24,870 bases of DNA. Source: a virus. Made by a program: the position numbers and the translations under genes. Below the pieces are notes generated by a model, which worked only from the letters and a program-made list of their open reading frames with translations, was not told the DNA's origin and did not search any database. Location of the stretch: positions 1 through 24,870 of IMG/VR virus record IMGVR_UViG_3300017989_000050. One strand, written 5' to 3'. Each line of letters starts with the position of its first letter. The stretch's first letter is position 1. Positions 1,109 through 21,840 of this stretch are shown here, one piece after another.

Positions 1109-1438
1109 ATGTCGTCGATCAAGAAGTTCGAAGAGAAGGCCGCCCGTCAGTCCGCCAAGAAGCGGGCCGAAAAGATGCAACTACAAGAGTTCATCGCCGG
1201 TTTTGCGATGGGAGCGGCCGAGGGGTTCGCCGAAAAACAGGGGATGAGCCTGGTCACCGACGGTATCGGGCCGTTGAAGTTCTCGTACGTCCAAGCGGGC
1301 CTCGGCTACTACCTGGCCACGAAAAAGAGCGGAAAGCTTCGCGAGGCCGGCTCCGCCGCCGCGGTGATCGGGCTCTACAAGATCGGCAAAGACATCGGGA
1401 CGAACTTCGAGCTCGGCGGATTCCTCGGCGGCAGCTAG
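1109..1438 (+). CDS. small basic / Gly-Ala-rich hypothetical protein (109 aa), first gene of the late operon
   Basis: ATG 1109 is in frame with track ORF 875..1438. The 875-1108 part of that ORF lies in the repeat-bearing intergenic region and is Arg/Trp-rich and junk-like. The product has a Lys-rich N-terminal helix (SSIKKFEEKAARQSAKKRAEK), then Gly/Ala-rich hydrophobic segments. Confidence 0.55.
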   Translation: MSSIKKFEEKAARQSAKKRAEKMQLQEFIAGFAMGAAEGFAEKQGMSLVTDGIGPLKFSYVQAGLGYYLATKKSGKLREAGSAAAVIGLYKIGKDIGTNFELGGFLGGS

Positions 1439-1548
1439 CCGCTCGCGCGCACATTCAGAAGTTCCCGGACGTCGCACCGGGGGACCAAGGCGACCCTCCC
1501 GGACCCCACGGCCGGGGCAACAAGCGTGGGTTCACGGAGCACACAGCC

Positions 1549-2211
1549 ATGAGACTCATCCAAGAAGCACTGTCCCCCAACGTCCAAGAGGCGATCCGTT
1601 TGCAGCACCGCGGCGCAGCGCCGCGTGCCCGGTTCGGCATCGGTGGAGGCTGCACGCCTCGCACCGCGACTCCCCCGCCCGGTTCGAGCAACTGCCCGAG
1701 TCCTCCTGTGGTCCCCGGTTGCATCCGCCCCGGACGCACCTGTGATGTGTCGCGTGTCGGCGCAACCCAGGTTGTCACCGGCGGCCAGCCGTTCAGCATC
1801 ATCATCGAGCCCACGCGGGTCACTTGGTTTCAGCCGCTTGGCGTTCGGTGTGTCATCACCGACCTGTCGAACAGCGACCTGAGCCACCGTGTGTTCTTCA
1901 CGGGCGTGACGATCAACGAGACCCCGCAAGAGTCGGTGAACAACATCACCCCGACGGCTCCCGCAGCCGCGGGCGATCGTATCGACGGCTGGTGGTCGGA
2001 CGATTGGATCGACCCCGACGGCTACGCCGTCCCCGTGGGCTGGGGGTGGATCTCTCGAGAGAGCAACACCAACCAGCTCAAGGTCCACGGAATCGCCCTT
2101 GGCATTCCGAACACCACGGACGTCTTGCTCTCGGTGTCGTTGTACGGAAACGGGGCGAACAGCGTACCCGCCGGCATCGCCGATTCAACCCAGCCGCGCT
2201 ACCGCCCCTAG
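1549..2211 (+). CDS. hypothetical beta-rich structural protein (capsid candidate), 220 aa
   Basis: Track ORF with GGAG about 10 nt upstream of the ATG and G/C-dominated third codon positions. The N-terminus is Pro/Cys-containing. The body is beta-type and Trp-rich (VFFTGVTINE, DGWWSDDWIDPDGYAVPVGWGWISRE). Confidence 0.65.
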   Translation: MRLIQEALSPNVQEAIRLQHRGAAPRARFGIGGGCTPRTATPPPGSSNCPSPPVVPGCIRPGRTCDVSRVGATQVVTGGQPFSIIIEPTRVTWFQPLGVRCVITDLSNSDLSHRVFFTGVTINETPQESVNNITPTAPAAAGDRIDGWWSDDWIDPDGYAVPVGWGWISRESNTNQLKVHGIALGIPNTTDVLLSVSLYGNGANSVPAGIADSTQPRYRP

Positions 2212-2234
2212 GAGCCATCAGGGGCCTCGTTACC

Positions 2235-3017
2235 ATGGAGAAGACCGAAGACGTCGGGCGTTCAACGTGCGGGTCATCGCGCGAGCGCATCCACGTCTTC
2301 GGCTCGTACGGGGACCCCGCGGCACCGTTGACGTGGCCCAGCTACGGCAAGACCGTTCCGGCCACGTGGGGTGTACAGCACGACTGCCCGCGGCTCTGGC
2401 TCGTATCAGGTCGCGGCTGGTCGGTGCAACGCTTCGACGCCAACAACGCCTTGGCTCCCCTTGCGGCGTCTCGCGTGGCGGACGGGACGAGTCGGCCCAT
2501 GGCGAAGCTTGCAATCCAAGTCGCAGGGATGGCGGTCGGCAAACAGCCGATCGTCATCGACGCGGACCAGACGATCGAGCTCTACGCCCAGTCTCTGAGC
2601 GTCGCTGCCCTCGTGCCGGTGACCGTCGATGAGGTCCGCTCGACGTCTTCGCTCGAGGTCCCCGCTGGACAGATTGCCGTCGACGACCTCTTGGGTGTCG
2701 CCATCGAAGGCATCCAGGCTCCGATCGGGGCCAAGACCGCGACGCTGACTCAGTACGTTGTGGCGCCGGCAAACACCGTGACATCGGTACCGGTCCCGCG
2801 CGCCGCAAAATCGGTCTTGGTGTCACCTGCCGACCTCGCGGCCCCGGGCGCCTGGACATGGCACGTGGGAGACCCCGCAGTCCTGGCGTCATCGCTCACC
2901 GTTGGGTCGTTTGCCCCCTCCGATGAATCCCTGCGCGTACCCGCCGCAACGCATCTGAGCGTCGCTGCCGACCCCGCAGTCCGAATCTTCGCCATCACCT
3001 GGACCATCGCGCCATGA
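2235..3017 (+). CDS. hypothetical beta-rich structural protein (capsid candidate), 260 aa
   Basis: ATG 2235 lies inside track ORF 1824..3017. The upstream 137 codons overlap the previous gene out of frame and are Arg-rich. The sequence is rich in Val/Ala/Ser/Thr. Its stop overlaps the next start (ATGA at 3014). Confidence 0.6.
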   Translation: MEKTEDVGRSTCGSSRERIHVFGSYGDPAAPLTWPSYGKTVPATWGVQHDCPRLWLVSGRGWSVQRFDANNALAPLAASRVADGTSRPMAKLAIQVAGMAVGKQPIVIDADQTIELYAQSLSVAALVPVTVDEVRSTSSLEVPAGQIAVDDLLGVAIEGIQAPIGAKTATLTQYVVAPANTVTSVPVPRAAKSVLVSPADLAAPGAWTWHVGDPAVLASSLTVGSFAPSDESLRVPAATHLSVAADPAVRIFAITWTIAP

Positions 3018-3544
3018 ACAACCTTCAAGCTCAGCTCAACCCCGGGACCTTCCTCGCCTCGTTGCTCTTCTCTGCCGGCCTGGATGCCGCGCTTTACGGA
3101 GCGGTCGACACCACCGTGATGCGGTTCGTGGGGACCGGCTCCCCGATGGGGACCGGCCTCGCGCAAGTGACCACGGCCGACAACGGAACGATCGTGACGG
3201 TGAGTCGCGCGGGCCTGTACGCCGTGCAGCTGCGCGGCAACAACACGGCCAACGGAACCCTGATCACGGGCATCACGGTCAACTGCGACGCCTTCGCGTT
3301 GACCAACCCTCCGAACTTCGGCACCGCGGGGACGCGAGACGTCGACGTGACCGAGGGGCAAGATGCGGCGGGCAACGGCGCCTCGTGTGCCCTGACCAGC
3401 CTTGTATCGGTGAGCAACGCCGACATTCGGGCAGGCATCGCGGCAGGGGCTGCCGGTGCGCAGCTTCGCGTGCACGGCAGCGGCGGCGGCATCTCGCAAG
3501 GCACCGCGTCCCTTCAGATCCGCCGAGTCCAGTCCACGTTCTAG
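3014..3544 (+). CDS. hypothetical small beta-rich protein, jelly-roll / C1q-TNF-like appearance, 176 aa
   Basis: ATGA overlap with the upstream gene. Composition is rich in Gly/Thr/Asn/Ala, with alternating patterns (GLYAVQLRGNNTANGTLITGITVNCDAF, AQLRVHGSGGGISQGTASLQIRRV). Confidence 0.65.
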   Translation: MNNLQAQLNPGTFLASLLFSAGLDAALYGAVDTTVMRFVGTGSPMGTGLAQVTTADNGTIVTVSRAGLYAVQLRGNNTANGTLITGITVNCDAFALTNPPNFGTAGTRDVDVTEGQDAAGNGASCALTSLVSVSNADIRAGIAAGAAGAQLRVHGSGGGISQGTASLQIRRVQSTF

Positions 3545-3556
3545 GAGGCCCTCTCG

Positions 3557-3991
3557 ATGCTCTATGGAGTCCGCTTGCGCAGCGAAGAAGCGCCCTCTCA
3601 GGCGTTCTTGGAAGCTGCGATCGAAGAGGTGACCCGCGGAAATGTGGGCTACTTCTTCGAGGAATGGCAAGCCGGGAGGGAGCCCCCCTGCTGTCTTGGG
3701 TGCGCGGAGATTCGCCATCTCCCCGACGAGCCCGCCGCGGTGACTGAAATCGTGGGCGCTCGAGACGTCCTCACCAGGGGGGCTGCATCTTGCCAGTCTG
3801 CGGCGGCGTACTACGCAGGCCGTGAGAGGGCTCTGGCGCTCTGGAACGGAGCGGACCCCCAGACGGCAGAGGTCCAGCACCGCGTGGTGCTCGAGCCGCG
3901 GCATCACCCGCACGCCCCGGAGGGGTACTGGCACGCGCTCGTCGTCACGCCCGAAGGCGTGAAGGACGTCACTGAGGAAATGGACACCTGA
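3557..3991 (+). CDS. hypothetical protein, possible transglutaminase-like / papain-like Cys peptidase core, 144 aa
   Basis: AGGAGG 9 nt upstream of the ATG. The order Cys...His...Asp (GAASCQSAAAYYAG ... YWHALVVTPEGVKDVT) resembles the transglutaminase-core arrangement. This is a motif-level guess only. Confidence 0.55.
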   Translation: MLYGVRLRSEEAPSQAFLEAAIEEVTRGNVGYFFEEWQAGREPPCCLGCAEIRHLPDEPAAVTEIVGARDVLTRGAASCQSAAAYYAGRERALALWNGADPQTAEVQHRVVLEPRHHPHAPEGYWHALVVTPEGVKDVTEEMDT

Positions 3992-4662
3992 TGCTCGCCC
4001 TACTCTTCGTGCTTCTCCTCGGTATGTCCGGATCGCGTCGCAGCGGTGCGAAGAAACTCCCCCCTCCCCCGACGCCCGACCCGAAAAAACTCCGGGAGCG
4101 GGTCTGCGCGCTCGTAGCCGCGGGGCACTTCGTCGACGGCATGCTTCCGCTTCTGCTGCGCGAGCTCTACCCCGCGGTGTCGTGGCCGGCGGGAGAGGAG
4201 TGGGACCGCAAGGACGTCGGCGCACTTCCGGTCGATGACCGCGCGAAGTACGACGCGACCAAAAAGGAACTGGATCGTCTCCTCAAACGAAACAAGTTCA
4301 TCGCCGAGTGCACCGATGCGATGACCCCCTACGCGGAAGGGGGCGTGGCGATCCGGGACGGCGACTACGTCGCGACGTGGCGCTACGACCACCGCATCGA
4401 CGACCCTGGCGGCAACCTCCGCTTCGACGATTTGGATGTCGCCCGAACCGCGTTGCTTCGAGCCCTGTACTTCTTCGGAGCCCCGGTCTCCGAGGCGGAC
4501 ACGTTCGTCGAAGCGTCGATGCTGCCGTCCGGCGTGCGCCGCTCGATTTGGGCGATGCCCGGCGGCGGGTACCGAGTCGTAATCGTTCTCGAGGATGACA
4601 GCTCGGCGGGGTACCAAGCGGCGACGCTTGACGATGCGCGCGCGATCGAAGGTGGCGGATGA
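3991..4662 (+). CDS. membrane-anchored hypothetical protein, 223 aa
   Basis: TGATG overlap with the upstream gene. N-terminal TM segment (LALLFVLLLGM) followed by a basic Pro-rich linker (KKLPPPPTPDPKK). Confidence 0.7.
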   Translation: MLALLFVLLLGMSGSRRSGAKKLPPPPTPDPKKLRERVCALVAAGHFVDGMLPLLLRELYPAVSWPAGEEWDRKDVGALPVDDRAKYDATKKELDRLLKRNKFIAECTDAMTPYAEGGVAIRDGDYVATWRYDHRIDDPGGNLRFDDLDVARTALLRALYFFGAPVSEADTFVEASMLPSGVRRSIWAMPGGGYRVVIVLEDDSSAGYQAATLDDARAIEGGG

Positions 4663-5495
4663 AGACCGAGGAAGTCGGCATCGTCGCGCTCTTGCTGCTC
4701 CTGTTCGCGTCGGGGTCAGGGGGAGAACCGCCCAACAAGGGGCCCGACAAAATCAAGCCGCCGCCCCAGCCCGACCCCGGGCCGGAGCCGGTCGAACCGG
4801 TCGAGCCTACGCCGGAAGTCGTCGACCCGCCGATCGACGAAATCACGAACACGGATTGGCCGGTGCCCGGTCACTTCTACGTCGTGCGTCCGGCGCAAGA
4901 CGGGGAAAAAGGCGACACCGGTCTACGCATCGCAAAACGAGCGCTCGCAGACGCGGCCTTCCGAGCTGCCAAAGAGTTCTTGGGCGCATCCGACGATGGC
5001 GCACGCGAGTTCGCCAAAGCCTACTCGAGCGACGGTCCCCGTCAGTACGCCTACCTCGACAAAATCACCTGCGAGTCCTGGAACGACGCGACCGTGACCA
5101 CGTACGGCTACGGCGACAAGGCCCGGGCGGCGCCTCTTAGTGGTCGGGCGATCCGGCTTCTCCCTCAGCACGCAGACAACCTGTCGCGACTTCGCCAGGG
5201 AAAGCGGGCCGTTCGTGAGATGCACTTCGGCAAGAGTAGCGACCGCACCAACGGAGTCCGACGAGGCGGCGGCGGCGATCGCCACGAGACCCTCTATCTC
5301 CCGGGCGTCGACCTGGCGCCGATCATTGAAGGGAAGCTGGCCATCGGCGGCGGAACGTGGCCCGACGGGAGCTCAAAGGCGCACCCCCCCAAGTGGGTGC
5401 TCGATCTCGGCGTGCGCGACCGTTCAAAGTCCGTCACGAGGGGGAACCTGCTTCGCGGTTGCGGAGACAAGGTGAAAGTTGAGGTGGTGCGGTGA
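4659..5495 (+). CDS. membrane-anchored protein with a TonB-like Pro-rich spacer, 278 aa
   Basis: ATGA overlap. N-terminal TM segment (VGIVALLLLLFASG), then PPNKGPDKIKPPPQPDPGPEPVEPVEPTPEVVDPP, then a globular domain. Confidence 0.7.
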   Translation: MKTEEVGIVALLLLLFASGSGGEPPNKGPDKIKPPPQPDPGPEPVEPVEPTPEVVDPPIDEITNTDWPVPGHFYVVRPAQDGEKGDTGLRIAKRALADAAFRAAKEFLGASDDGAREFAKAYSSDGPRQYAYLDKITCESWNDATVTTYGYGDKARAAPLSGRAIRLLPQHADNLSRLRQGKRAVREMHFGKSSDRTNGVRRGGGGDRHETLYLPGVDLAPIIEGKLAIGGGTWPDGSSKAHPPKWVLDLGVRDRSKSVTRGNLLRGCGDKVKVEVVR

Positions 5496-5992
5496 GCTGC
5501 TCAAAAGCATACAGGGACCTGGTGGTCACCCACGGTGGCCTGACGATCGACAATCAGACCGGCTTCGTTCCAAGTCACTTCGACTACGATGAGTGGTTGG
5601 CGCTTGCCCGGCGTCTGGGCCTCCGAGCCTTCACGCACCTCGAGCGGCTCAAGACGACCGCGCCGGAGGCCGGGGAGCTTCGTCAGCAATACGAAGGACT
5701 CGAGGCTCAGTTCCAGTCGCTGCGCGCGCGGTACGAGGCGCTGCCTTCGATCTGGACGTGCTGCTTTATGTACGAGGACACGACGCGCAACATCGGCGAC
5801 GCCGCGTCACTGTGCATCGAGACCGCGTGCTTGATGGAGGAGATCGACAAGGTCATCTCCCGCGCCGGCGCGTCGCCGCCGGTTGAACCTCCCACCCACG
5901 GGAGTGCGACGAAGCCCAAAACCGTCATCGCCGGAGCGGGGACGCTCGCGCTTGCGCTCGGCGCTGCCTATCTCTGGTTCAAGTCGAAGTGA
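5492..5992 (+). CDS. tail-anchored membrane protein, 166 aa
   Basis: GTGA overlap. Helical N-terminal part and a C-terminal TM segment (VIAGAGTLALALGAAYLWF). Confidence 0.65.
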   Translation: MSCSKAYRDLVVTHGGLTIDNQTGFVPSHFDYDEWLALARRLGLRAFTHLERLKTTAPEAGELRQQYEGLEAQFQSLRARYEALPSIWTCCFMYEDTTRNIGDAASLCIETACLMEEIDKVISRAGASPPVEPPTHGSATKPKTVIAGAGTLALALGAAYLWFKSK

Positions 5993-6477
5993 TGAGCGGA
6001 CTCTGGCTACTGCTGCTGCTCGTGCTCGCTTCCCGCGGGCGTGGATCGAGCGTGCCCGCCGACGGCAAAAAGAAGGACGGGGGGCGCTTCTGGGACTCTT
6101 CCGGTGGCTCAACGTTCGGAGGCTTTGACTTCGCCGGGAACGGCATCGAAGTCGACGAGGAGTGCGGAGCCGTTGCCGAAGGACGTTGGTTCTTCCCCTT
6201 CGACTGGGCGACGGTGAACACGCGAGCCGAAGAGGCCGACACGGTCGGAGGAACACTCGCGATCGGCCGAGACAATACCGTCTTGGGCTTCATCGACTAC
6301 CTCACCGACACCGAAGGGGTGACAGAGCCGGAGGTCATCGCGGCAAGGATCCTCGAAGAGGTCGCCCCCACGTGCGCCACGGCACCAGTGGACAGCTGGC
6401 GGCCAGCAATGCGGGCTTGGTACGGATCTCTCACCGAACGGGTCACGGCCTACGTGGGGCAGGACTTGATCGGATGA
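5992..6477 (+). CDS. secreted / membrane-anchored hypothetical protein, 161 aa
   Basis: ATG 5992 overlaps the upstream TGA (GTG 5989 is also possible). N-terminal hydrophobic segment (GLWLLLLLVLAS). Confidence 0.65.
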   Translation: MSGLWLLLLLVLASRGRGSSVPADGKKKDGGRFWDSSGGSTFGGFDFAGNGIEVDEECGAVAEGRWFFPFDWATVNTRAEEADTVGGTLAIGRDNTVLGFIDYLTDTEGVTEPEVIAARILEEVAPTCATAPVDSWRPAMRAWYGSLTERVTAYVGQDLIG

Positions 6478-7208
6478 AAGCTCGCGCTGGAATCGGAATC
6501 GCGCTGCTCGCCGCGCTGACGCTCTTGGCGAACTCGCCGAGCGACCCCGGCACGCCGTCGACGCGGCCGCCCGGCGGCGCAAAGCTGGTCCGCGAGCTCG
6601 GCCAGCGCGGAGGGATGACGGCGGGGCAGATCGACTTCCTCACGTTCGTTGCATACGGAGAGTCGGGGTTGAAGCCCGACGTGGGGCTTGGGGACGCGGC
6701 ACTGTTCCCGCCGGGGACGCGGCCGAACACGAAGGCCAGTCAGTCGTTGCAGGTCGCAGAGGCTTACGCTGCCCGCAAAGCCTACGACCGAAACCGCGGG
6801 TGGCTGGGCAGCTGCCCGCATCCCGAGTCCGCGTATGCGTTTGGCAGTGGCGGCTTGTTCGCATTTCTCCCCGTCTACGCGCTCGCACAGTTCAAGGGTA
6901 CGGCGCTCGAGTGCGCGTCTCCGTACTCCGTCTTCGATCCCGCTTTCGCGATGGCGGCGGCGTACGGGTTCGCGCGCGGACTGACGATGCGCGCGGGCTT
7001 CCTCGGCACGTGGGAGTCGCTGCGCTCCGGCTGGGGACTCCCCTCGGCGATGGATGACCTTGAGCGCATCGCGAAGAAGTCCGACAAATGGAAGCGGCAG
7101 CTCAACGCGGTGGGGTTGCCCGCCTCTCGGCTCAAGGCTGAGGCACCCGCGTTCCCAAGGCGCGATCTGGTCGAGCTGTACCAGGGCATGGGTGGGGGGA
7201 ACGCATGA
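6474..7208 (+). CDS. putative lytic transglycosylase (SLT-like) with signal peptide, 244 aa
   Basis: ATGA overlap at 6474 inside track ORF 6162..7208. Signal-like N-terminus (GIGIALLAALTLLA). Glu-Ser catalytic-type motif FVAYGESGLKPDV followed by GSGGLFAFL and AAAYGFARG, as in goose-type/SLT domains. Confidence 0.5.
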   Translation: MKARAGIGIALLAALTLLANSPSDPGTPSTRPPGGAKLVRELGQRGGMTAGQIDFLTFVAYGESGLKPDVGLGDAALFPPGTRPNTKASQSLQVAEAYAARKAYDRNRGWLGSCPHPESAYAFGSGGLFAFLPVYALAQFKGTALECASPYSVFDPAFAMAAAYGFARGLTMRAGFLGTWESLRSGWGLPSAMDDLERIAKKSDKWKRQLNAVGLPASRLKAEAPAFPRRDLVELYQGMGGGNA

Positions 7209-7318
7209 CATTCGACGAAGACGCGAAGCCCAGCAACTACGTGGCGCGAGGGTTCTACTTCGCGATCGGTACGTGGATTTTCTGGTCGCTGGCCAACGCC
7301 CTCACGGAGGACGACTGA
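7205..7318 (+). CDS. 37-aa single-TM miniprotein (below the ORF-track size cut-off)
   Basis: The ATG at 7205 overlaps the upstream TGA (ATGA), and its own TGA (7316-7318) overlaps the next ATG (TGATG). Product MTFDEDAKPSNYVARGFYFAIGTWIFWSLANALTEDD has one hydrophobic helix. It exactly fills the gap between two coupled genes. Confidence 0.55.
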   Translation: MTFDEDAKPSNYVARGFYFAIGTWIFWSLANALTEDD

Positions 7319-8241
7319 TGCCTGCTTCGAAGTCCGGCAGCCGCGCCACATACCCGAGCGGAAAAGCTGCGGCGCGAGAGTTCTACGGGGAGAATGCCGC
7401 GTTCTTCGACAACGTTCGGGACCCGGTCGACGGTGTGCGCGACTTCCTGGATGGGCTCAACGACAGGCGTGGGCGTCGCGTGTCAGAGACAACGGCCGGG
7501 CGAAAAATCCTAGCCGAACGCTCTGGGCGGAAGATGATCGAAGGCGCTTTGGCGCTTGTGTTCGCGCAGCCGCGGCGAAAACGCTGGGACGCTGTGGATT
7601 GGCACGAGGTCCGCCGACTTGAGGAATCGCTCTCACCGTTCTACGAACCGTACGGCCAAAGGTCAGCCCAATCGCCAACCCTCGTGTGGAAGCCGTTGGC
7701 CGCAGTTACGGACGAGGATGTCGGGTCTCTCGCTCCCGAGGTCGCAAACCTCTACTACGCGCAGAAGCACAAAAAGAATCTGCGGGAGCTGGTCTCGCGT
7801 CTGTCCTCCACGTTTGAGGCGCGCAAGGGATGCCTGACCCCGCCCCAGCGAAAACACGTGAAGGCCCGAATCCGCGAGTGGACGCGTTGGGCAAAGGACC
7901 CCGCCCGGGTTCCGGCCTACGCATGCGATCCGGACCCAAAGTCGGGCGGGATGCTTTGCGACTACCCCAGAATCGAAGGCGAGCTGGCGCGACTGCGCGA
8001 TGCGTGCCGCAGTAAGTACGATCCCGAGTGGATCGAGCTCGAGCGCGGTCGGCCTGGTTTTCAAGAGCCGCTACGTGCCGACGAACAGCCTTTGCTGCCG
8101 GTCGAGGCGTTCGAGGACGAAGCGCCGAAGGAGCCATGCACAGTGAAAGAGGCGGCAGGGGTGATGGGGCGCCACGCCGCCAGGAGACGCCAACGCAAGC
8201 CAAGACGCCCGCAGGTGATCATGGGGAGGCTAGTCACGTGA
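7318..8241 (+). CDS. hypothetical basic protein, 307 aa
   Basis: ATG 7318 inside track ORF 7054..8241 (TGATG coupling). Charged and helical, with a strongly basic C-terminus ([16 protein letters not shown]). Confidence 0.65.
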
Positions 8242-8516
8242 CCAAGAAACGCAGCAAGAAGACGACAAAACGACGCGCGAAGAAGACGGCCAAGAGGAAG
8301 ACGGCCAAGAGGAAGACGGCCAAGAAGAAGACGGCCAAGAAGAAGACGGCCAAGAGAAAAACGGCCAAGAGGAAGACGGCCAAGAAGAAGACGGCCAAGA
8401 AGAAGACGGCCAAGAAGAAGACGGCCAAGAAGAAGACGGCCAAGAAGAAGACGGCCAAGAAGAAGACGGCCAAGAAACGAAAGCCGTTCGTCCACTGTGG
8501 GAGAGTCGTCGGCTGA
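8238..8516 (+). CDS. histone-H1-like, Lys-rich (K/R)KTAK pentapeptide-repeat protein (putative DNA-condensing protein), 92 aa
   Basis: GTG 8238 overlaps the upstream TGA (GTGA), with GGAGG 8 nt upstream. Product: [18 protein letters not shown], then repeated (K/R)KTAK units, ending [14 protein letters not shown]. Confidence 0.75.
8280..8474 (+). repeat. 13 tandem copies of the 15-bp unit AAGAAGACGGCCAAG (coding, in frame)
   Basis: ACGGCC recurs every 15 nt from 8286 to 8466. The last six units (8385-8474) are identical. Variant units carry AGG or AGAAAA in place of AAG codons. Confidence 0.95.
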
Positions 8517-9097: not shown

Positions 9098-10005
9098 TGC
9101 TCTGGCTACTCGCACTTGCAACCGTGGCGCTTGTCGCCTCCGCCGAAAACAAGAATCCTCCGCCCGCGCCGGTCGGAAACTCCGGACATGTGCCGCTCAA
9201 CAACGTCGACACGTTCGAAGTGCTGACCTACACGGTGCTCGTCGGCCAAGATGAAGAGGGCAACTGGGATTGGCGCGCGTGGCTGACCACGGTGTTTGAG
9301 TCGCGCGACGAGATCGACGGCCTCGAAGAGGGCCAGGGCTTCGACTGGCCAACGCGCGAGGAAGCAGAGGCCGAGGCGCGCGCGTGGGCGGAGTCGCAGT
9401 TGCGCGGGCCGTTGGGGACGTCGGTCCCCGTGGAACCCGCGATCACACGTCGGGGCGTCCGCGTGTCGGGAGACGGCAGCGCAGTGTCGGTGACCGACAT
9501 CGACGCGTGGATCGCCCACGCCGCGCCCATCATCAAGGGGCACGACGTCGAGTCTCCGCAGGCCGACGACATCATGCGGCTGACGCTTCACGGGGCGTTC
9601 CCGGAACGCGGCTTCGACTCGGGCGCGAGCCCCTCGATTCGCGGTCAGTCGTGGGAGAAGACGCGGGAGCGCGTTCAAGCGGTCATCGACAAAATCCTCG
9701 CCGGCGAGCTGCTCAGCGTGCAGCCGCTAGAAGAGGTTGTCGCGGCCCGCGTCCTCAACATGTCGGCGCCGACGGTCGAAGGCGCGAGCGCCTTCCTGCA
9801 CACGGGGGCGAACAACGGCAACGAGCACGCGATCGTCGTGCGGCCGATGCCGTCCGGAGACGCCGCGTGGTGGGTCTGGCAGGGGCCGCGTCGCGACTGG
9901 GACGACGCCGCGCAAGTCGGCACGGCTCGAGACACGGAGGAAGCCAAGGGCGCCGCGAAGGCGTGGGCTGACGCCTACTACAACGTCGGAGTGAGCACAT
10001 CGTGA
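9097..10005 (+). CDS. secreted / membrane-anchored hypothetical protein with internally repeated W-x-W...EEA...AWA motif, 302 aa
   Basis: ATG 9097 overlaps the upstream TGA, inside track ORF 8863..10005. N-terminal hydrophobic segment LWLLALATVALVASA followed by a Pro-rich stretch. Confidence 0.65.
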   Translation: MLWLLALATVALVASAENKNPPPAPVGNSGHVPLNNVDTFEVLTYTVLVGQDEEGNWDWRAWLTTVFESRDEIDGLEEGQGFDWPTREEAEAEARAWAESQLRGPLGTSVPVEPAITRRGVRVSGDGSAVSVTDIDAWIAHAAPIIKGHDVESPQADDIMRLTLHGAFPERGFDSGASPSIRGQSWEKTRERVQAVIDKILAGELLSVQPLEEVVAARVLNMSAPTVEGASAFLHTGANNGNEHAIVVRPMPSGDAAWWVWQGPRRDWDDAAQVGTARDTEEAKGAAKAWADAYYNVGVSTS

Positions 10006-10352
10006 GACCCATGGGGAACATCAACGGCGAGAATGGACAGACCGGAGCGCTGCGAGAGCGCAGTGTCACGGCGAGCACCACGCTGGTCGAGAGCGACGGT
10101 GGGCGCGTGCTCGAAGCGGACCCCGCCGCCGCCGGCGGAGCGCTGACCATCACTCTTCCGGCCGACAGCTGTGGACCCGGCTACTTCACCGAGGTGATGC
10201 AGGTGTCCGCAGGGACGGTGGTGTTCGCCCCCGCAGCGGGGACGTCGATCGACTCGGCAGCGGGCGCCACCCAGCTCACCCAGCAATGGACCTCGGCACG
10301 CATGCGTCGCCGAGAGACCGGCACATGGGCTCTGGAGGGGGCGCTCTCGTGA
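10002..10352 (+). CDS. small hypothetical protein, paralogue A of the 11966..12322 product, 116 aa
   Basis: GTGA overlap (ATG 10011 is an alternative start). Shares ...DGG.vL...GPG(Y/F)...(V/I)MQ..AGTV...TQLT.Q...R...TW.L.G.L with the 118-aa protein. Confidence 0.65.
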   Translation: MRPMGNINGENGQTGALRERSVTASTTLVESDGGRVLEADPAAAGGALTITLPADSCGPGYFTEVMQVSAGTVVFAPAAGTSIDSAAGATQLTQQWTSARMRRRETGTWALEGALS

Positions 10353-11956
10353 GCCGGCTCTGGCGATGGATGGGCGGTCGAGGGACGGCCTCCGCCGTGC
10401 TCTCGCTGCAAGTCACCTTTCAGGGCGGCTCGGCGATGTTCGAGACGGAGCGGGCAGCCCGTGAGGGCTCCGCCGGCGGCTCGCTGCAAGGGCTCACCAT
10501 CGCCGTGCCCGGCAACGCACCGCTGGGGAATCACTACTTCTACTTCCGCCAGACCGACCAATACGGCCGCGTCGTCGGGTTCTCGACTGCGGCTCTGTAC
10601 GCTGCGCTGGCCGGATACACCCCCCACGCGGTCGACATGCCCGCGGGGGTGAACGACATGGACGCCGTCGCCGACATGTTCCGATCGGTTGCGGCGACCG
10701 TGTTTGCGGCCGCCGTCCGCGTCGACAACGTCGTGACGATCGCCGACCCGAACATCGACGCCGCGGGGGCCTTCCTGCCCTCGAGTGGCGGCGGCGGTGG
10801 CGGAATGCTCGGCACGCAGGATGTCTCGTCGAGCAACCTTTTCACGCAGCCGGACTCGAACGTCTGTTCTCTCGTGACGCCCGCGTTCGCGGATGACACG
10901 TACCTCTTCGCGGTTCAGGTCGACATCGGCTCCGCGTACGTGGACCCGTTGCGGTTCGGTCTCTACGTCGGCGGAGGGGTCAACGCGCCCGGCGGGACGC
11001 CGCTGTTGTGGGACTCCGGGGTGTGGCCGGCGGCCGTGGTGACTGGCCAGTACCTGACGCTCTTCCCTTCCTCGCTCGTTCAGGTGCCCGCAAGCACGCG
11101 GTTGCAGGCAATCATCGTGGGCGCCGCCGGGACCACAACCGAGGTCGGCTACCAGGGCGCCAGCGGTGCGGGAGACTGGGAGACGAGCCCGGGCGGCATC
11201 TTCAACGTCAACGCCGCGATTCCGCCGAACCCGGCCGCAGCACTGCCGGGGACCTTCCCCGCCGGCGGCAGCCTGACGTCGGCAACGTTCACCTTCAACG
11301 TGCGACTGATCTACAGCACGCTGCCGTTGCGAGGAGACGGGGCGCTACAGACCCAATACGGCGTGCACGTGGCCGCGAGTGACCTCGCGTTCACCACGGC
11401 ATTCGCTGCAAACGTTCTCCAGGGCGGCGCCCTGCCCCCGCAGCTCGAGGGGCTCGGGCTCGACTTTGTCGAGATCGCGGCAAACGACGATGCATCGTTC
11501 CGTCTCGCGGCCTATCAGGGCGGAGCACTGCTCAACCCGAACACGGCTGACCTGGTCTACGACGTCGGCCAAGGTCCCGCGGGGCCTGGTCTGCCGATCG
11601 GCTGGTACCGGCGCAACGTGCCGGCGGCTGTGCACGCCCCCATCGATCGAACGCGACTCATCTGGAGCGCGGCTCGGGACAACGGCGGAGCAACGGTGCG
11701 CTTCTCCAACGTCCCCGGTCCCGGGCCCGCGGGTCCCGACACCAACCCCATGGACTACCCCGACAACACGCCGGGCAACGAACCCGAGTACGAGTCCTTC
11801 TCGTCGAACCCGGGCTTCGCAATCGACCCCACCACGCCGTTTGAGGCGAGCTTCCCCGCCAACACCACCAACGCCCCGATCGACACGCTGCCCGGAAACG
11901 TGCAGGGGTCGAAGCTGGGATTCCGCATCCGCCCCGTCGAACTCGCTGCCATCTGA
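10349..11956 (+). CDS. large beta-rich Gly/Pro/Ala-rich protein (spike / host-recognition or large capsid candidate), about 535 aa
   Basis: Track ORF 10286..11956. I chose GTG 10349, which overlaps the upstream TGA; ATG 10370 or 10436 are also possible. No TM segment. Has a poly-Gly linker (SSGGGGGGM) and a C-terminal Pro/Asn-rich region. Confidence 0.7.
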   Translation: MSRLWRWMGGRGTASAVLSLQVTFQGGSAMFETERAAREGSAGGSLQGLTIAVPGNAPLGNHYFYFRQTDQYGRVVGFSTAALYAALAGYTPHAVDMPAGVNDMDAVADMFRSVAATVFAAAVRVDNVVTIADPNIDAAGAFLPSSGGGGGGMLGTQDVSSSNLFTQPDSNVCSLVTPAFADDTYLFAVQVDIGSAYVDPLRFGLYVGGGVNAPGGTPLLWDSGVWPAAVVTGQYLTLFPSSLVQVPASTRLQAIIVGAAGTTTEVGYQGASGAGDWETSPGGIFNVNAAIPPNPAAALPGTFPAGGSLTSATFTFNVRLIYSTLPLRGDGALQTQYGVHVAASDLAFTTAFAANVLQGGALPPQLEGLGLDFVEIAANDDASFRLAAYQGGALLNPNTADLVYDVGQGPAGPGLPIGWYRRNVPAAVHAPIDRTRLIWSAARDNGGATVRFSNVPGPGPAGPDTNPMDYPDNTPGNEPEYESFSSNPGFAIDPTTPFEASFPANTTNAPIDTLPGNVQGSKLGFRIRPVELAAI

Positions 11957-11965
11957 GAGCAAGCC

Positions 11966-12322
11966 ATGAATCACGCATCCCCCGGAAACCTCAATGGCCG
12001 CAAGGCTGACTACACCGGCACCAACGCCGCGCGCACCATCACCGCCGACTACCAGGTCCGGGAGACCGACGGCGGCGTGCTGCTGGTGGTGGACAGCGCA
12101 GGGCCCGTGTTCATCTCGCTCGAGGGCACCGTCGGTCCCGGCTTCTCCGTCGACATCATGCAAGAGGGAGCGGGCACGGTCTCGATCCTCGGGCTGCCCG
12201 GACAGACGGTCCTGTCTCGCGACGACCGCACCCAGCTCACCGGGCAGTACGCCCGCGCCCGCGCCCGCTGCATCCGCGCCGATACGTGGGTGCTCGACGG
12301 TGACCTGACCACGGGCGGCTAG
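11966..12322 (+). CDS. small hypothetical protein, paralogue B of the 10002..10352 product, 118 aa
   Basis: Track ORF. Motif sharing as listed for paralogue A. Confidence 0.65.
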   Translation: MNHASPGNLNGRKADYTGTNAARTITADYQVRETDGGVLLVVDSAGPVFISLEGTVGPGFSVDIMQEGAGTVSILGLPGQTVLSRDDRTQLTGQYARARARCIRADTWVLDGDLTTGG

Positions 12323-12371
12323 ACCTCCGCGCCCCTTTCAACGCAACGCCAACCCGAACAACGAAACTCCC

Positions 12372-12773
12372 ATGACCAGACTCCGAACTCATTGCCTGCT
12401 TCTCGCCTCCGCCCTCGCTGTTCCTCTCACGCTCGGCGTGGGGGCATGCGAGCTGTCCGGGTGTGCCGCCGGCTCGAACGTTGGGCCGACGCTTCAGAGC
12501 GTCGTTGCGCGCGTTGACGTCCCGCGGCTTCTCGAGTGTGCCCAGGCCGGCGACGCGAAGGCGGCCGCAAAGTGCCTCGGCGCCCGGGCGCTGACCGAGG
12601 GCTTGCGCCTGGCGATGGACGAAGCGACGCGGCTCGCCGAGGACGCTCAGCTTGCATCGGCCAAGGGAGCCGGCGCGGACGACATGAGCGAGCCTGAACG
12701 AGCCGCGCTCGCAATGCAGCTCGACCACTCGCTAGACCGCCTGGCCGACGAGATCGCAGCCACGCACGAGTAG
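12372..12773 (+). CDS. putative lipoprotein (possible outer-membrane spanin-like component), 133 aa
   Basis: Signal peptide plus lipobox-like LTLGVGA|C. The mature part is helical and Ala-rich. Lies immediately upstream of the TM coiled-coil and amidase genes. Confidence 0.55.
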   Translation: MTRLRTHCLLLASALAVPLTLGVGACELSGCAAGSNVGPTLQSVVARVDVPRLLECAQAGDAKAAAKCLGARALTEGLRLAMDEATRLAEDAQLASAKGAGADDMSEPERAALAMQLDHSLDRLADEIAATHE

Positions 12774-12785
12774 AGAGAACCGGCC

Positions 12786-13148
12786 ATGGTGGAGTCGGTA
12801 TCGGCAGACGCTCTCGATGTCGGCTCACTCGTCGGCAACGGAGGGCTCAGTGCCGTGCTTGCAGTCGCGGCGTGGCGACTGAGCACGGCCGCAAAACAGT
12901 TCGTCGACACCTTCAAGCAGGCGGTCGCCCAGTGGCGCGAGGATGCGAAGGCTCAGCGCGCGCACTTCGAGTCCGAAGAGAACTTGCTGCGGGAGCTTCG
13001 AGACGAGCGGAAGACGTGGGACGCGGCCAAGGAAGCCGAGGCGAACTGGCGGCGCTCGATCATGCAGGTGAACACCCGCCTCGACAGCATCGACGACCGC
13101 ATCGACCGCGCAATCGCTCGCGCTGGCGAAGATCGGGGGCACGGCTGA
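12786..13148 (+). CDS. membrane-anchored coiled-coil protein (i-spanin-like or holin-like), 120 aa
   Basis: N-terminal hydrophobic segment (GGLSAVLAVAAWRL), then a charged coiled-coil (QWREDAKAQRAHFESEENLLRELRDERKTW). Its stop overlaps the amidase start (TGATG). Confidence 0.55.
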   Translation: MVESVSADALDVGSLVGNGGLSAVLAVAAWRLSTAAKQFVDTFKQAVAQWREDAKAQRAHFESEENLLRELRDERKTWDAAKEAEANWRRSIMQVNTRLDSIDDRIDRAIARAGEDRGHG

Positions 13149-13981
13149 TGCTCGGCGCGTCTTTGCTCGCCGCCCGACTCGCAGCGCTGCTCCACCCCAC
13201 GGACGTCTCTCGAATGTGGGAGCCCGGAGAGGCGGAGTCCCCCGACGACCTCGCAGCATGTGAGGCGGAGCGGTGCGCGACCGAAGAGGTCATCGCCGAC
13301 TTCGAGGTGGTCGATCTCGAGGGCCGCGCAGCGAAGGCGCGGTACCGGGGCAAGAACGGCAAGCCGGGCAAGCTGAAGCGGACTCGGTACCCACGCGTGT
13401 CGCTCGCGAAGCGCCGCGTGGTCGTGTCTCTTCACCAGCCGGGGGTCGAGCGGACCGAGGCGCGTTGGCGGCAGACGGCGGACCGGGTGACGTCGCATCG
13501 CTTCATCGGGCCGACCGGCGTTCGCTACCGCCAACACCCGCTCGAAACCCGTCTCGTTGCAACGAACCGCCTCGACCGGGCACCGTGGCATGCCATCGCG
13601 ATCGAGGTCGCGGGCAACTTCGAACGGCTCGACGGTACCGGAACGTGGTGGAACCCGGACCGATTCGGGCGAGGTCGGGCTACCGACGCGCAGATCGAAG
13701 CCACGCGGGTTGAGATTGCTTCGCTCTGCGAGGAAGTCTCCGAGCTCGGCGGCGAAGTCGAGGCCATCGTTCCGCACATCATCGCGGGGCGAGACCGCAA
13801 CGGCCGTCCGAACCGGCAAGCCTGCTGTGGCTCGCGCGTGTGGTCGGAGGCTGGCGAGTGGGCCGGGGCTGTCCTCGGGCTCAGTGTGCCCGCGCCGGGC
13901 TTTGCTCTCGGCGGCCTGCCGGTCCCGGACGCGTGGCACGGGCCGTACTGGGGGCGCTGCGATCGATTCCTGACGGGGTAG
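13148..13981 (+). CDS. N-acetylmuramoyl-L-alanine amidase (Amidase_2 / PGRP / T7-lysozyme type) endolysin, 277 aa
   Basis: ATG 13148 inside track ORF 12872..13981. Motifs appear in the expected order: VVVSLHQPG (first Zn His), SHRFIGPTGVRYRQ, WHAIAIEVAGNF, TDAQIEATRVEIASL, then PHIIAGRD...QACCG (His/Cys ligands). Hydrophobic N-terminus (LGASLLAARLAALL). Confidence 0.7.
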   Translation: MLGASLLAARLAALLHPTDVSRMWEPGEAESPDDLAACEAERCATEEVIADFEVVDLEGRAAKARYRGKNGKPGKLKRTRYPRVSLAKRRVVVSLHQPGVERTEARWRQTADRVTSHRFIGPTGVRYRQHPLETRLVATNRLDRAPWHAIAIEVAGNFERLDGTGTWWNPDRFGRGRATDAQIEATRVEIASLCEEVSELGGEVEAIVPHIIAGRDRNGRPNRQACCGSRVWSEAGEWAGAVLGLSVPAPGFALGGLPVPDAWHGPYWGRCDRFLTG

Positions 13982-21809: not shown

Positions 21810-21840
21810 CGAGAGAACCCACGAGAGAGACGAGAAGACA

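Follow-up and report, generated by a model that had tools for sequence, protein, structure and literature searches.

Organization of the element

The window, that is the whole 24,870-nucleotide stretch of DNA analyzed, begins and ends with the same 123-bp direct repeat (positions 1..123 identical to 24748-24870), an assembly overlap that makes the contig a closed circle of 24,747 bp. Two further assemblies contain the same element. A chain of co-oriented late genes occupies the plus strand from 1109 to 13981, 12 of its 19 junctions overlapping by 1 or 4 nt. This chain had been recognized in a first-pass annotation, with 24 genes where 20 are counted here (g01 to g20), and its first ten genes are matched by an independent gene call on an identical ENA contig. 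As also noted there, at least 10 late products are anchored or bear a signal peptide. Hydrophobic anchors at either terminus, signal peptides or a lipobox were recognized in g04, g06, g07, g08, g09, g10, g13, g14, g18, g19 and g20. Strand composition is without strong asymmetry (AT skew +0.06, GC skew +0.01).

The late operon opens, as in all relatives, with g01 (1109..1438), a small conserved protein of 109 aa with a hydrophobic C-terminal half. The beta-rich g02 (1549..2211; 220 aa), containing three invariant Cys, lies directly 5′ of g03 throughout the lineage and may be a second capsid, penton or assembly protein. Next comes g03 (2235..3017; 260 aa), the conserved, probable double jelly-roll (DJR) capsid protein, whose family comprises 127 clusters at 50% identity with a uniform length of 250-300 aa. 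The conserved, beta-rich g04 (3014..3544; 176 aa), with an N-terminal hydrophobic helix, is a candidate vertex or minor capsid protein, and g05 (3557..3991; 144 aa) is a conserved Cys...His...Asp protein whose family members in relatives match Transglut_core (transglutaminase/papain-like; E = 2.3e-5). The g01-g05 core, with the divergent gene m2, is kept in all distant relatives.

The AF2 model of g03, built from a 106-sequence alignment, has a pLDDT of 94.4 and a pTM of 0.91 and folds into about 16 strands forming two tandem beta-barrels. In Foldseek searches the PhiCjT23 capsid was its top PDB match (prob 0.97), PM2 P2 was also among the PDB matches, and the matches in BFVD included the major capsid proteins (MCPs) of the tectiviruses GC1 (0.98) and Wip1 (0.96). 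TM-scores were low (0.25-0.35), E-values only about 1e-4, and non-viral two-barrel proteins (PHM, pirins, vicilins) matched the model about equally well; the identification of g03 as a DJR capsid protein, which we consider likely, is hence based on fold class plus context and not on tight superposition. No sequence link to the MCPs of FLiP or PhiCjT23 was found with hhalign (E = 0.66 and 0.81), and the g03 sequence gave no signal of internal duplication. Judging from the model, the capsid is probably not novel.

The genes g06 (3991-4662), g07 (4659-5495), g08 (5492-5992) and g09 (5989-6477) encode products with N- or C-terminal membrane anchors, candidate internal-membrane virion proteins, of which g07 and g09 are retained in distant relatives. 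The conserved, signal-anchored g10 (6474..7208; 244 aa) displays an invariant E-S ... GxGG motif like that of lytic transglycosylases. Present only in this genome, g11 (7318..8241; start uncertain, 7054-7318) ends in RKPxxxVIMGRxV, a motif common to the basic protein g12. The latter (8238..8516; 92 aa) is lysine-rich with KKTAKK repeats; its position is conserved in relatives (75 aa in L003, 81 aa in L012), as is a C-terminal RKPxV..GRVV. The DNA-condensing-type basic protein announced by the first-pass annotation is therefore present, and g12 is a candidate for condensing or tethering the genome.

After the conserved, N-terminally anchored g13 (8516-9097) and g14 (9097-10005), the paralogs g15 (10002-10352) and g17 (11966-12322) flank g16 (10349-11956; 535 aa). 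Both paralogs match C-terminal domains of phage virion/minor-tail proteins in PHROGs. The g16 protein is 53% identical in the distant relative L004 and is replaced in the close relative L007 save for its first ~10 residues. These observations argue strongly for g15-g16-g17 (10002..12322) being an exchangeable spike or receptor-binding module. At the end of the operon lie a lipoprotein (g18, 12372-12773), a protein with a TM segment plus a coiled coil (g19, 12786-13148) and a predicted signal-anchored Amidase_2-type endolysin (g20, 13148-13981), all three orthologs of which match Amidase_2 (best E = 3.3e-4). There is a strong case that g18-g20 lyse the cell, and the endolysin cassette proposed earlier is plausible. 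From the "three or four wall hydrolases" of the same proposal, g20 and the g05 family have HMM support and g10 and g13 do not, their SLT-like and permuted papain-like assignments being motif-level guesses only. The many small anchored proteins are very probably components of an internal membrane like that of PM2, PRD1 and FLiP.

The remainder of the plus strand carries the early functions. Small ORFs fill an early/accessory region (14408..19866) containing three apparent paralogs (14950-15249, 15246-15515 and 15742-16032), an MT-A70 DNA methyltransferase (16631-17266) and an ASCH-domain protein (17987-18550). The 648-aa Rep (19863..21809), devoid of a helicase domain, shows invariant ...SD..LV(I/V)Y(K/R)K... 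and RVE(L/W)RLRKK motifs and a sub-threshold Pfam match to the Rep_trans rolling-circle initiators (PF02486; 24.9 bits vs a cut-off of 29.6, E = 1.8e-5). The rolling-circle Rep of the first-pass annotation thus finds a Rep_trans signal in 9 of the 20 family members, weak and below the Pfam threshold. Over its motif region, Rep can be aligned with Rep_trans proteins from PhiCjT23 and Cellulophaga ssDNA phages; hhalign gave only E = 0.058, and profile searches of PDB and PHROGs returned no Rep. The bacterial-type SSB (21838..22326; acidic DDDIPF tail), already named in that annotation, is solid (PF00436, E = 4e-40). On the minus strand, m1 (23111..24580) encodes a conserved 489-aa protein with a C-terminal hydrophobic anchor, whose association with Rep and SSB extends even to distant relatives (L006, L012, L021, L022). 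The gene m2 (342 aa, acidic, helical) spans the window junction, with its 3′ part at 24595..24870 and its 5′ part at 124..876, and is divergent from the late operon in all relatives.

Probable integration at the host dif site

Between the lysis genes and the early region lies a dif-like attP, overlooked in the earlier reading together with the Xer-mediated integration it implies (14352..14379, plus strand; AACGACGACTC-TGTATA-TTATGTCAAAT). Over its central region and XerD arm (17 bp, 14363-14379) it matches the host dif of an integrated relative without a mismatch, and L007 and L008 have the identical 17-bp core in their attP sites. Upstream by 9 nt lies a conserved GATAA (14349-14353), and just upstream of attP a hairpin with an 8-bp stem (14327..14345, plus strand) has counterparts at the corresponding position in four relatives, where the stem sequences differ; it may be a terminator or an accessory element of attP or of the origin. 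The integrated relative, syntenic with the element, is a 26.1-kb prophage placed exactly at the host dif site, bounded at both junctions by the 19-bp direct repeat ATGTATATTATGTCAAATC. Its left junction restores a full dif, TTTTCCGATAA-TGTATA-TTATGTCAAAT, next to host genes for an ECF sigma factor and a Ser/Thr kinase, and the right flank encodes a kinase, an S26 peptidase and LepA. Pfam searches found no integrase in the window, and recombinase genes are absent from the dif-type members; the more distant L006 and L021 encode Phage_integrase. It is highly probable that the host Xer recombinases integrate the element at dif, which would account for its lack of an integrase.

Absence of a packaging motor

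None of the six frames of the window contains a Walker A motif of the form [AG]xxxxGK[ST], the looser GK[ST] matches not being P-loops, and the motif is likewise missing from the element genes of every relative examined. Among the ~40 products, Pfam and PHROGs gave no match to a terminase, portal, HK97 MCP, tail, tape-measure protein or FtsK/HerA ATPase, and m1, m2 and g02 had no NTPase match in Pfam, PHROGs or NCBIfam. The first-pass claim that Walker A, packaging motor, portal and tail are missing was thus borne out, and by sequence the packaging ATPase appears genuinely lacking in the window and in all relatives examined, the structural module being without a P-loop ATPase in every lineage member examined. 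In the 13-kb fragment of L009, a distant member of the MCP family, a DUF927/Toprim primase-helicase stands in place of the rolling-circle Rep and no packaging ATPase was found, so the loss of the ATPase may not be tied to rolling-circle replication. The accompanying premise, that the known membrane-containing icosahedral phages encode an FtsK/HerA ATPase, is incomplete, since DJR phages without such an enzyme have been described: FLiP and PhiCjT23, with ssDNA genomes of 7.6-9.2 kb, and the Odin group, of 7-11 kb (PMC5894146, PMC9719478).

Relationship to known systems

The lineage comprises at least 127 capsid clusters with genomes of 20-26 kb, and searches of phage, plasmid and IMG/VR collections found no relatives, in keeping with the undescribed lineage that had been suspected. 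The closest parallels are the Flavobacterium phages PhiCjT23 and FLiP (Finnlakeviridae and relatives), with ssDNA, an internal membrane and a DJR capsid. The element shares with them a circular genome in which almost every gene lies on the same strand, a Rep_trans-type rolling-circle initiator, the lack of a packaging ATPase, a swappable spike and many small membrane proteins; its modeled two-barrel capsid protein has PhiCjT23 as best PDB match, PhiCjT23-like prophages also integrate at dif without an integrase, and FLiP-group contigs carry an SSB (Yutin et al. 2018). PhiCjT23 itself is a ssDNA, membrane-containing, dif-integrating DJR phage with Rep_trans, whose paper mentions no ATPase (PMC9719478). 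In contrast, their genomes measure 7.6-9.2 kb, with metagenomic FLiP-group contigs of up to 17 kb, and that of the element 24.7 kb; neither its MCP nor its other structural proteins detectably resemble theirs in sequence, its host is a high-GC bacterium and not Flavobacterium, and it adds the lysine-rich protein, m1/m2, g02, the methyltransferase and the lysis cassette.

The PM2-like DJR phages are IMEXs (PMC12715192). The element resembles PM2-like corticoviruses and the dif-type Vibrio DJR prophages in its temperate, circular nature and rolling-circle Rep, the DJR capsid and inner membrane (here predicted), and a dif-like attP used with host XerC/XerD and adjoined by lysis genes (PMC12715192); both lineages include dif-type and int-type members (here L006 and L021). 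It differs in lacking their FtsK-like packaging ATPase P9, in a 2.5x larger genome, and in an attP of the XerD-arm type with the extra GATAA and adjacent hairpin; no P15/P16 (XafT/RstR-like) homologs were detected. With the Odin group (Yutin et al. 2018), also without an ATPase (PMC5894146), it has in common a DJR MCP preceded by a conserved protein of no assigned function; that group differs in its 7-11 kb genomes from marine sediments, its replication module, and its ParB and PD-(D/E)XK nucleases, domains not found in the element. The filamentous IMEX phages CTXphi, VGJphi and TLCphi likewise combine a Rep_trans-family (RstA-type) initiator, a ssDNA-binding protein and integrase-free, host XerCD integration at dif, but their Zot/pI assembly ATPase and secretin are absent here, and the large beta-rich structural operon with a lysis cassette points to an icosahedral particle released by lysis, not an extruded filament. 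The Microviridae (phiX174) also dispense with a packaging ATPase, and by analogy a rolling-circle initiator would feed the genome into the capsid; theirs are single jelly-roll capsids with 4-6 kb genomes and no membrane, and no homology to them was detected.

Proposed packaging and alternative explanations

In the reading we propose, with a probability of roughly 0.6, the window represents a temperate phage without a tail, in its excised, circular state; the phage would belong to an uncatalogued lineage with uncultured high-GC bacteria as hosts. That the element is a non-tailed virus at all is very probable, and the earlier reading of a virion-type late operon of such a virus, and not of a tailed phage, is supported. 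In the likeliest mechanism, by analogy with FLiP and PhiCjT23, the Rep_trans-type initiator would start rolling-circle replication, with SSB coating the displaced strand. In the absence of a packaging motor, encapsidation would most likely be coupled to replication, the genome entering the capsid, or being enclosed by it, as a strand condensed by protein. The conserved, lysine-rich g12 would neutralize the DNA and could tie it to the shell by means of the C-terminal motif shared among relatives, in analogy with the small, very basic protein J of phiX174. A packaged ssDNA genome is a tentative proposal, at slightly less than even odds. Speaking against it, the genome is ~3x larger than that of any characterized ssDNA DJR phage, L009 has its primase-helicase instead of a rolling-circle Rep, and strand asymmetry is not strong.

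It is rather unlikely, but deserves weighing, that the same DJR, membrane-containing temperate phage encloses dsDNA without a motor of its own. Capsid and membrane might form around a genome that the basic protein has already condensed, as has been proposed for the Odin group and as capsids do in polyoma/papillomaviruses, or a host translocase might be borrowed, such as FtsK, already active at dif, a co-option for packaging of which we know no precedent. A size of 20-26 kb is typical for dsDNA DJR phages, and a gene for a DNA methyltransferase is present. In L009 a primase-helicase replaces the rolling-circle Rep and still no packaging ATPase was found, the Odin group is reported to combine dsDNA genomes with the lack of an ATPase, and PM2 has dsDNA despite a rolling-circle Rep and a dif-like attP (PMC12715192). 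The 9:1 skew of GGGNAGGG motifs to one strand is weak evidence, as this KOPS-like skew could be coding bias. Against dsDNA, an FtsK/HerA ATPase is found in every characterized dsDNA DJR phage of similar size (PMC5894146), while Rep_trans, SSB, a dif-like attP and no ATPase are exactly the gene set of PhiCjT23, whose MCP is the top structural match.

A non-viral element is improbable. It would be an integrative plasmid-like IMEX whose large operon serves envelope remodeling or encodes secreted proteins, and g03 would be a two-barrel protein of cellular type that binds carbohydrate or acts as an enzyme. Cellular DJR homologs reportedly exist, non-viral two-barrel proteins almost equal the capsid proteins in Foldseek, IMG/VR holds no relatives and most products lack a known function. 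However, partition, conjugation and mobilization genes are absent and there is no ATPase at all, leaving no known transfer route except a particle, and none of 72,556 plasmids is a relative. The plasmid alternative of the first-pass annotation is further disfavored by dif integration, the capsid-like protein, the virion-protein domains matched by g15 and g17, a late-operon grammar closing with an anchored amidase next to attP, the cassette replacement of g16 with its N-terminus kept, typical of receptor-binding proteins, and a structural core that, as is seen in virus families, is joined to varied modules for replication and integration.

The same annotation had taken the missing terminase, portal, tail and packaging ATPase, combined with Rep, SSB and the histone-like protein, to suggest a pleomorphic/enveloped virus or a wholly new capsid fold around a pre-condensed genome. 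The many membrane proteins, the basic condensing protein and the missing motor would fit, but this is very unlikely: structure prediction and Foldseek gave, for the highly conserved, abundant two-barrel, all-beta g03 near the head of the late operon, best matches to DJR major capsid proteins, and pleomorphic viruses have no need for such a protein. Equally far-fetched is a packaging ATPase diverged beyond recognition or of a non-P-loop fold, for which m1, m2, g02 and g14 are conserved and uncharacterized and m1 co-occurs with Rep and SSB even where the structural genes differ, in view of the absence of Walker A, to our knowledge the most robust motif known, from all six frames and from the element genes of the relatives examined, and of any NTPase match for m1, m2 and g02 in Pfam, PHROGs and NCBIfam.

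The tail-less temperate phage proposed here would thus belong to a lineage in which one structural core is paired with different replication and integration modules across relatives, and which does without a packaging ATPase at a genome size 2-3x that of the few known phages managing without one.

Genome organization and conserved core

The last 123 bp of the window are a copy of its start, which closes it into a circle of 24,747 bp with about 66% G+C. Gene calling by codon bias gave some 39 genes, 37 of them on the plus strand, in agreement with an independent call on the identical ENA contig, and m2, a minus-strand gene of 342 aa, spans the window junction; tRNA and Rfam scans of the window were empty. 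The co-oriented late operon (1109-13981) holds 20 genes (g01 to g20), where the first-pass annotation had counted 24, and 12 of its 19 gene junctions are overlaps of 1 or 4 nt. At least ten of its products have a signal peptide, a lipobox or a hydrophobic anchor at the N- or C-terminus, as that annotation had proposed. Comparison with the relatives L004, L009, L012, L013 and L021 defines a conserved core composed of the divergent m2, then g01, g02, g03, g04 and g05, followed by g07, g09 and g10; g02 and g03 are neighbours without exception in the close and distant relatives compared. An MT-A70 DNA methyltransferase (16631-17266) and an ASCH-domain protein (17987-18550) were also recognized. 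Three small early proteins (14950-15249, 15246-15515 and 15742-16032; 99, 89 and 96 aa) appear to be paralogs with the common pattern ...Q/SYA..(V)PV....L..AG....G....FWG.FVL..GG; they have no family match and are missing from close relatives.

Integration at the host dif site

The element is a circular episome, a syntenic relative is a prophage located at dif, the dif-type members are recombinase-free, and packaging ATPases are lacking lineage-wide among the relatives examined. The lineage is rare. Searches among 5.8 billion proteins returned 19 homologs of the putative replication initiator Rep, 6 of g16 and, by word-indexed search, 2 of g03, many of them on contigs of 20-26 kb (20.4-26.0 kb for the relatives' contigs, 26.1 kb for the prophage), and only 2 of 185,579 species-representative genomes carried a relative. 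The MAG-bin labels of the relatives, 'Proteobacteria bacterium' and 'Pirellulaceae', are unreliable for contigs of 17-22 kb. A megablast search of the window and tblastn searches with Rep and g03 against phages and plasmids gave zero matches, as did IMG/VR scans with Rep, g02, g03 and g16; at the sensitivity used, the lineage (MCP, Rep and most other proteins) is absent from INPHARED, PLSDB, IMG/VR and PHROGs, and the literature search found no published description of it.

A relative whose Rep is 70% identical lies integrated within a bacterial contig of 133 kb, and its proteins recur on a 273-kb contig. The whole prophage, covered by joining two loci, measures 26,130 bp (ERZ27287088), is integrase-free and has the perfect 19-bp direct repeat ATGTATATTATGTCAAATC at both ends. 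An ECF sigma factor and a Ser/Thr kinase lie on its left flank, and a kinase, an S26 signal peptidase and LepA on its right. The left junction (attL), TTTTCCGATAA-TGTATA-TTATGTCAAAT, is a canonical 28-bp dif, to be compared with GGTGCGCATAA-TGTATA-TTATGTTAAAT of E. coli; in the right junction (attR), the left arm is derived from the phage and is followed by this central region and XerD arm. Window positions 14363-14379 (TGTATA-TTATGTCAAAT) reproduce without change the host dif's central region and XerD arm as read at the left junction; compared with E. coli dif, one of the 17 positions differs. This 17-bp attP sits in the only sizeable intergenic gap, at the boundary between lysis and early genes, which is where the prophage ends fall, and the same 17-mer occurs in L007 and in the distant L008 (Rep 46% identical). 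Pfam found zero integrase or recombinase domains among about 40 window products and zero in the integrated copy. [quoted passage not shown] The more distant L006 and L021 encode a tyrosine integrase, hence the lineage has both 'dif-type' and 'int-type' members, a split likewise seen in the PM2-like DJR prophages of Vibrio described in 2025 (PMC12715192).

Several features surround the site. Stable hairpins lie just upstream of the dif-like core in the window (14327-14345), in L003, the locus adjoining host LepA (13939-13960), in L007 (5952-5968) and in L008 (7263-7285); their position is kept, their stem sequence differs, and the DNA fold z is -2.2 to -4.0 for sequences folded individually. 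Three of the four have CCCTG in the loop or 3′ stem. After each hairpin comes a conserved GATAA (window 14349-14353), corresponding to the host XerC arm at its 3′ end; a spacer of 9-11 nt (window 14354-14362) separates it from TGTATA. Possible roles of the arrangement are a late-operon terminator (a T-run follows it in L008), part of an origin, or an XerC half-site that has been displaced. Downstream of attP the genes begin with the early gene e02 (14408-14953), which lies leftmost in the prophage; its C-terminal ~70 aa are conserved (...ARWGLRxQTxRxAEL...ERREARAAxYR...DVSGGAR) in L005 (~3314-3900), L007 (6020-6469) and L008 (7330-7662). Its position would suit a regulator or, in analogy to XafT/P15, a factor for Xer activation or excision; homology of e02 to XafT/P15 was not detected. 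The circle carrying the dif-like site also contains the FtsK-orienting-type octamer GGGNAGGG, nine times on the minus strand (4062, 9000, 11430, 15261, 15865, 16888, 18182, 18671 and 19177) and once on the plus strand (18033), a marginal skew that may reflect coding bias, and the octamer may not be the KOPS of the host.

A candidate double jelly-roll capsid protein

The g03 product (2235-3017, 260 aa) belongs to a family that an exhaustive HMMER search resolved into 127 clusters at 50% identity, uniformly of 250-300 aa; for comparison, PM2 P2 has 269 aa and the PhiCjT23 major capsid protein (MCP) 239 aa. An AlphaFold model from a 3-sequence alignment (pLDDT 39) was discarded, and the one from 106 sequences reached pLDDT 94.4 and pTM 0.91, all-beta with about 16 strands. 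Its best Foldseek match in the PDB is the PhiCjT23 capsid protein, 7zzz_A (E = 1.2e-4, probability 0.97), with PM2 P2 at rank 18 and P23-77 VP17 weak; the TM-scores are only 0.25-0.35, and the non-viral two-barrel proteins peptidylglycine monooxygenase, pirins and vicilins score nearly equal. High-probability matches in BFVD include the MCPs of the tectiviruses GC1 (0.98) and Wip1 (0.96), with homologs from a medusavirus, an asfa-like virus and a mimivirus at lower ranks. A sequence-level link is absent, since hhalign of the family against MCPs gave E = 0.66 for PhiCjT23 and 0.81 for FLiP, and no internal repeat was detected between the N- and C-terminal halves; the mutual HHpred link of the FLiP and PhiCjT23 MCPs is itself barely there, at E = 1.2 (PMC9719478). 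PDB sequence and profile searches with Rep, g03, g10, g13 and g20 returned only noise (calmodulin, Tn3 resolvase). We regard the fold class of the model, with two jelly-roll-like barrels in tandem, as secure, and fold, size, position, conservation and context together make g03 quite probably a double jelly-roll (DJR) capsid protein. An undescribed non-tailed lineage had been proposed at first pass; the element is tail-less and unrecorded in the collections searched, and what probably falls away is the novelty of the capsid, g03 being DJR-like.

Replication proteins

Rep (19863-21809, 648 aa) matches Rep_trans (PF02486) with E = 1.8e-5 and 24.9 bits, below the gathering score of 29.6, and PF02486 is also matched by 9 of 20 members of the Rep family. 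The Rep_trans motif sought was the catalytic-Tyr region G.r.S....r.Y.K followed by R.E. Residues S287, D288, Y294, K296 and R330-V331-E332 are invariant, within the block ...SD..LV(I/V)Y(K/R)K...RVE(L/W)RLRKK, which aligns over 143 columns with Rep_trans proteins of PhiCjT23 and Cellulophaga ssDNA phages (hhalign E = 0.058-0.1); the catalytic Tyr is presumably the one placed by comparison with the pT181 family. Rep is therefore a probable Rep_trans rolling-circle initiator, and the earlier assignment rests on a match with a score under the Pfam threshold. The adjacent SSB (21838-22326), likewise called at first pass, is unequivocal (E = 4e-40) and has the bacterial DDDIPF tail. Locus L009 (884-3742), on a stromatolite metagenome contig (ERZ909567), has a DUF927 helicase and a Toprim_3 primase instead of Rep_trans and SSB. 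As L009 carries the g03 family, the structural module has been combined with at least two replication modules.

The minus-strand gene m1 (23111-24580) encodes one internal and one C-terminal hydrophobic segment and has no family match. Homologs of about 490-540 aa are found in L006 (14054-15547), L012 (285-1904), L021 (10900-12438) and L022 (12861-14486). It accompanies Rep and SSB lineage-wide, even where most structural genes are unrecognisable, its orientation flipping among relatives, and stands out as the best candidate, so far unexplored, for a packaging factor or one that links replication to assembly.

Absence of a packaging motor

The lack of a Walker A motif reported at first pass held in all six reading frames, where zero [AG]xxxxGK[ST] strings occur; GK[ST] turns up a few times in looser contexts, none of them a P-loop. 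Pfam, PHROGs and NCBIfam gave zero matches to terminase, portal, HK97 capsid, tail, tape-measure, FtsK/HerA or Zot families (NCBIfam zero of any kind for 10 key proteins); the ~100-aa C-terminal domains of g15 and g17 were the sole tail-related matches in Pfam and PHROGs. The FtsK/HerA-type (A32-like) ATPase that adjoins the MCP as a hallmark of the Bamfordvirae-type DJR phages of Tectiliviricetes/Ainoaviricetes was found neither in the window nor in the relatives. The relatives fetched have no packaging ATPase either, their only true Walker A motifs being in host LepA (L003) and in the DUF927 replicative helicase of the distant L009; a Walker-like string of L021, ATYKSGKS, sits in an amidase ortholog and is not a P-loop. 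As the motor is missing in every relative fetched, its absence is a property of the lineage and not an assembly gap.

Several known types were considered and rejected. A tailed phage (Caudoviricetes) is set aside because terminase large subunit, portal, HK97-fold MCP and tail genes are all without Pfam or PHROGs match; an Inoviridae-type filamentous phage, because there is no P-loop protein and no Zot match; an actinomycete integrative conjugative element, because FtsK-like TraB and integrase are lacking; a sphaerolipovirus-like virus with two single jelly-roll capsid proteins, because there is no ATPase and g03 has two barrels; and a corticovirus, because its defining ATPase is absent from the window. 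For the Odin group, the described ParB and PD-(D/E)XK nuclease domains are unmatched in Pfam, and it is these domains, not the MCP sequence, that set the element apart.

In function and architecture the closest systems are the PhiCjT23/FLiP group and the PM2-like dif-type DJR prophages. PhiCjT23, whose gene set resembles that of the window, is an ssDNA phage with dif-flanked prophages, a membrane inside the capsid, a Rep_trans initiator and a DJR MCP, and its description mentions no ATPase (PMC9719478). The FLiP group has rolling-circle Rep and SSB genes and no packaging ATPase (Yutin et al., PMC5894146), a combination that the window probably shares; the motor is missing in FLiP, PhiCjT23 and the Odin group as in the window. 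Finnlakeviridae and PhiCjT23-like genomes measure 7.6-9.2 kb (metagenomic relatives up to 17 kb) versus 24,747 bp for the window. The element is therefore not placed in Finnlakeviridae, the genome size lying outside this range and MCP homology being supported at fold level only.

Candidate spike and lysis genes and a conserved basic protein

The paralogs g15 and g17 match the C-terminal ~100 aa of phage virion/minor-tail proteins (phrog_21510, E = 1e-9; also 18179 and 8780). Between them, g16 (535 aa) retains 53% identity in the distant L004, whereas the otherwise close L007 has an unrelated 542-aa protein in this slot, of which the first ~10 residues are kept (VSRLWRWMG vs VSRLFRQFG). Such a pattern agrees with a receptor-binding spike that can be exchanged and is held by its N-terminus, with the g15 and g17 domains on either side.

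The lysine-rich g12 (8238-8516, 92 aa), the basic protein noticed at first pass, is unique by BLAST, yet has counterparts at the same position in L003 (75 aa) and L012 (81 aa). A C-terminal RKPxV..GRVV is common to the three and also ends the unrelated g11; the polylysine g12 and the g11 tail (8190-8241) end alike in RKPxxV.MGRxV. The gene before g12 in the relatives encodes a TM protein of ~55 aa that has a tail of poly-Asp/Glu (L003 7796-8184; L012 9258-9679), and the acidic TM and basic proteins are perhaps a paired module, a placeholder-and-replacement system for genome condensation.

From three or four wall hydrolases proposed earlier, two have profile matches: g20, trimmed to its real start, is an Amidase_2 (3 of 3 orthologs match, best E = 3.3e-4), and the g05 family has Transglut_core (E = 2.3e-5 in relatives); g10 and g13 are motif-level guesses with zero HMM support. 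The g18 lipoprotein, g19 TM/coiled-coil protein and g20 anchored amidase at the operon 3′ end form a plausible lysis cassette.

A model for genome loading without a motor

We strongly infer that the particle is icosahedral and tail-less, that its DJR-type shell encloses an inner membrane holding the anchored proteins, that the vertex spike can be exchanged and that release is lytic. In the model that we propose, Rep would nick the DNA and drive rolling-circle replication, the displaced strand would be coated by SSB, and the genome, charge-neutralised, would be loaded or enclosed in a replication-coupled manner with no motor, g12 condensing and tethering it. Tentatively, with a probability of about 0.4-0.45, the packaged genome would be ssDNA, the weakest step of the model. 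Against this stand a genome three times as large as the characterised examples, and L009, a distant capsid-family member that has a primase-helicase and no packaging ATPase in its 13-kb fragment; base composition skews of the window are uninformative on strandedness. The main rival, a dsDNA version in which the capsid assembles around condensed DNA (a route suggested for the Odin group, which likewise lacks an ATPase) or a host translocase helps, we consider rather unlikely. That the element is a non-viral plasmid, the alternative left by the first-pass annotation, is improbable, given that transfer and partition genes and plasmid relatives are lacking and that the late-operon grammar, the virion-domain matches of g15 and g17 and the cassette behaviour of the candidate spike g16 all point to a virus. 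The pleomorphic or novel capsid proposed at the same time is very improbable in view of the two-barrel model of g03, with DJR MCPs as its best matches, and so is a hidden, diverged ATPase, disfavoured by motif and profile searches.

Implications

The element is a temperate, Xer-exploiting, tail-less phage, probably with a DJR capsid, from a diverse, uncatalogued, ATPase-less lineage, and thereby exposes a phage group missing from IMG/VR, INPHARED and PHROGs. Xer-exploiting, integrase-free lysogeny of icosahedral phages reaches past Vibrio, Pseudoalteromonas and Flavobacterium. DJR-capsid viruses are defined by the capsid protein together with an FtsK/HerA packaging ATPase, and the two published exceptions (FLiP and PhiCjT23; the Odin group) had been put down to 'small genomes'. 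The lineage keeps the capsid-type protein without the ATPase in at least 127 capsid clusters at 50% identity, in dif-type and integrase-type members and in genomes of 20-26 kb, unusually large for this condition. Such a diverse, large-genome lineage makes motor-less DNA entry concretely testable, with Rep, SSB, the basic protein with its C-terminal motif, g02 and m1/m2 as the candidate set.

It is possible, if somewhat doubtful, that the lineage consists of ssDNA DJR phages of 20-26 kb, in which rolling-circle replication drives packaging and the strand is condensed by a polylysine protein dedicated to this task. Among known ssDNA viruses, Aeropyrum coil-shaped virus has the largest genome, ~24.9 kb. 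Spiraviridae genomes rank above the 17-kb contigs of the FLiP group (PMC5894146). If the reading is true, genomes of 20-26 kb would be about three times that of FLiP and on par with the largest, motor-less, replication-coupled encapsidation would scale far beyond 'small genomes', and the ssDNA DJR branch would gain a large, diverse sister group in high-GC bacteria.
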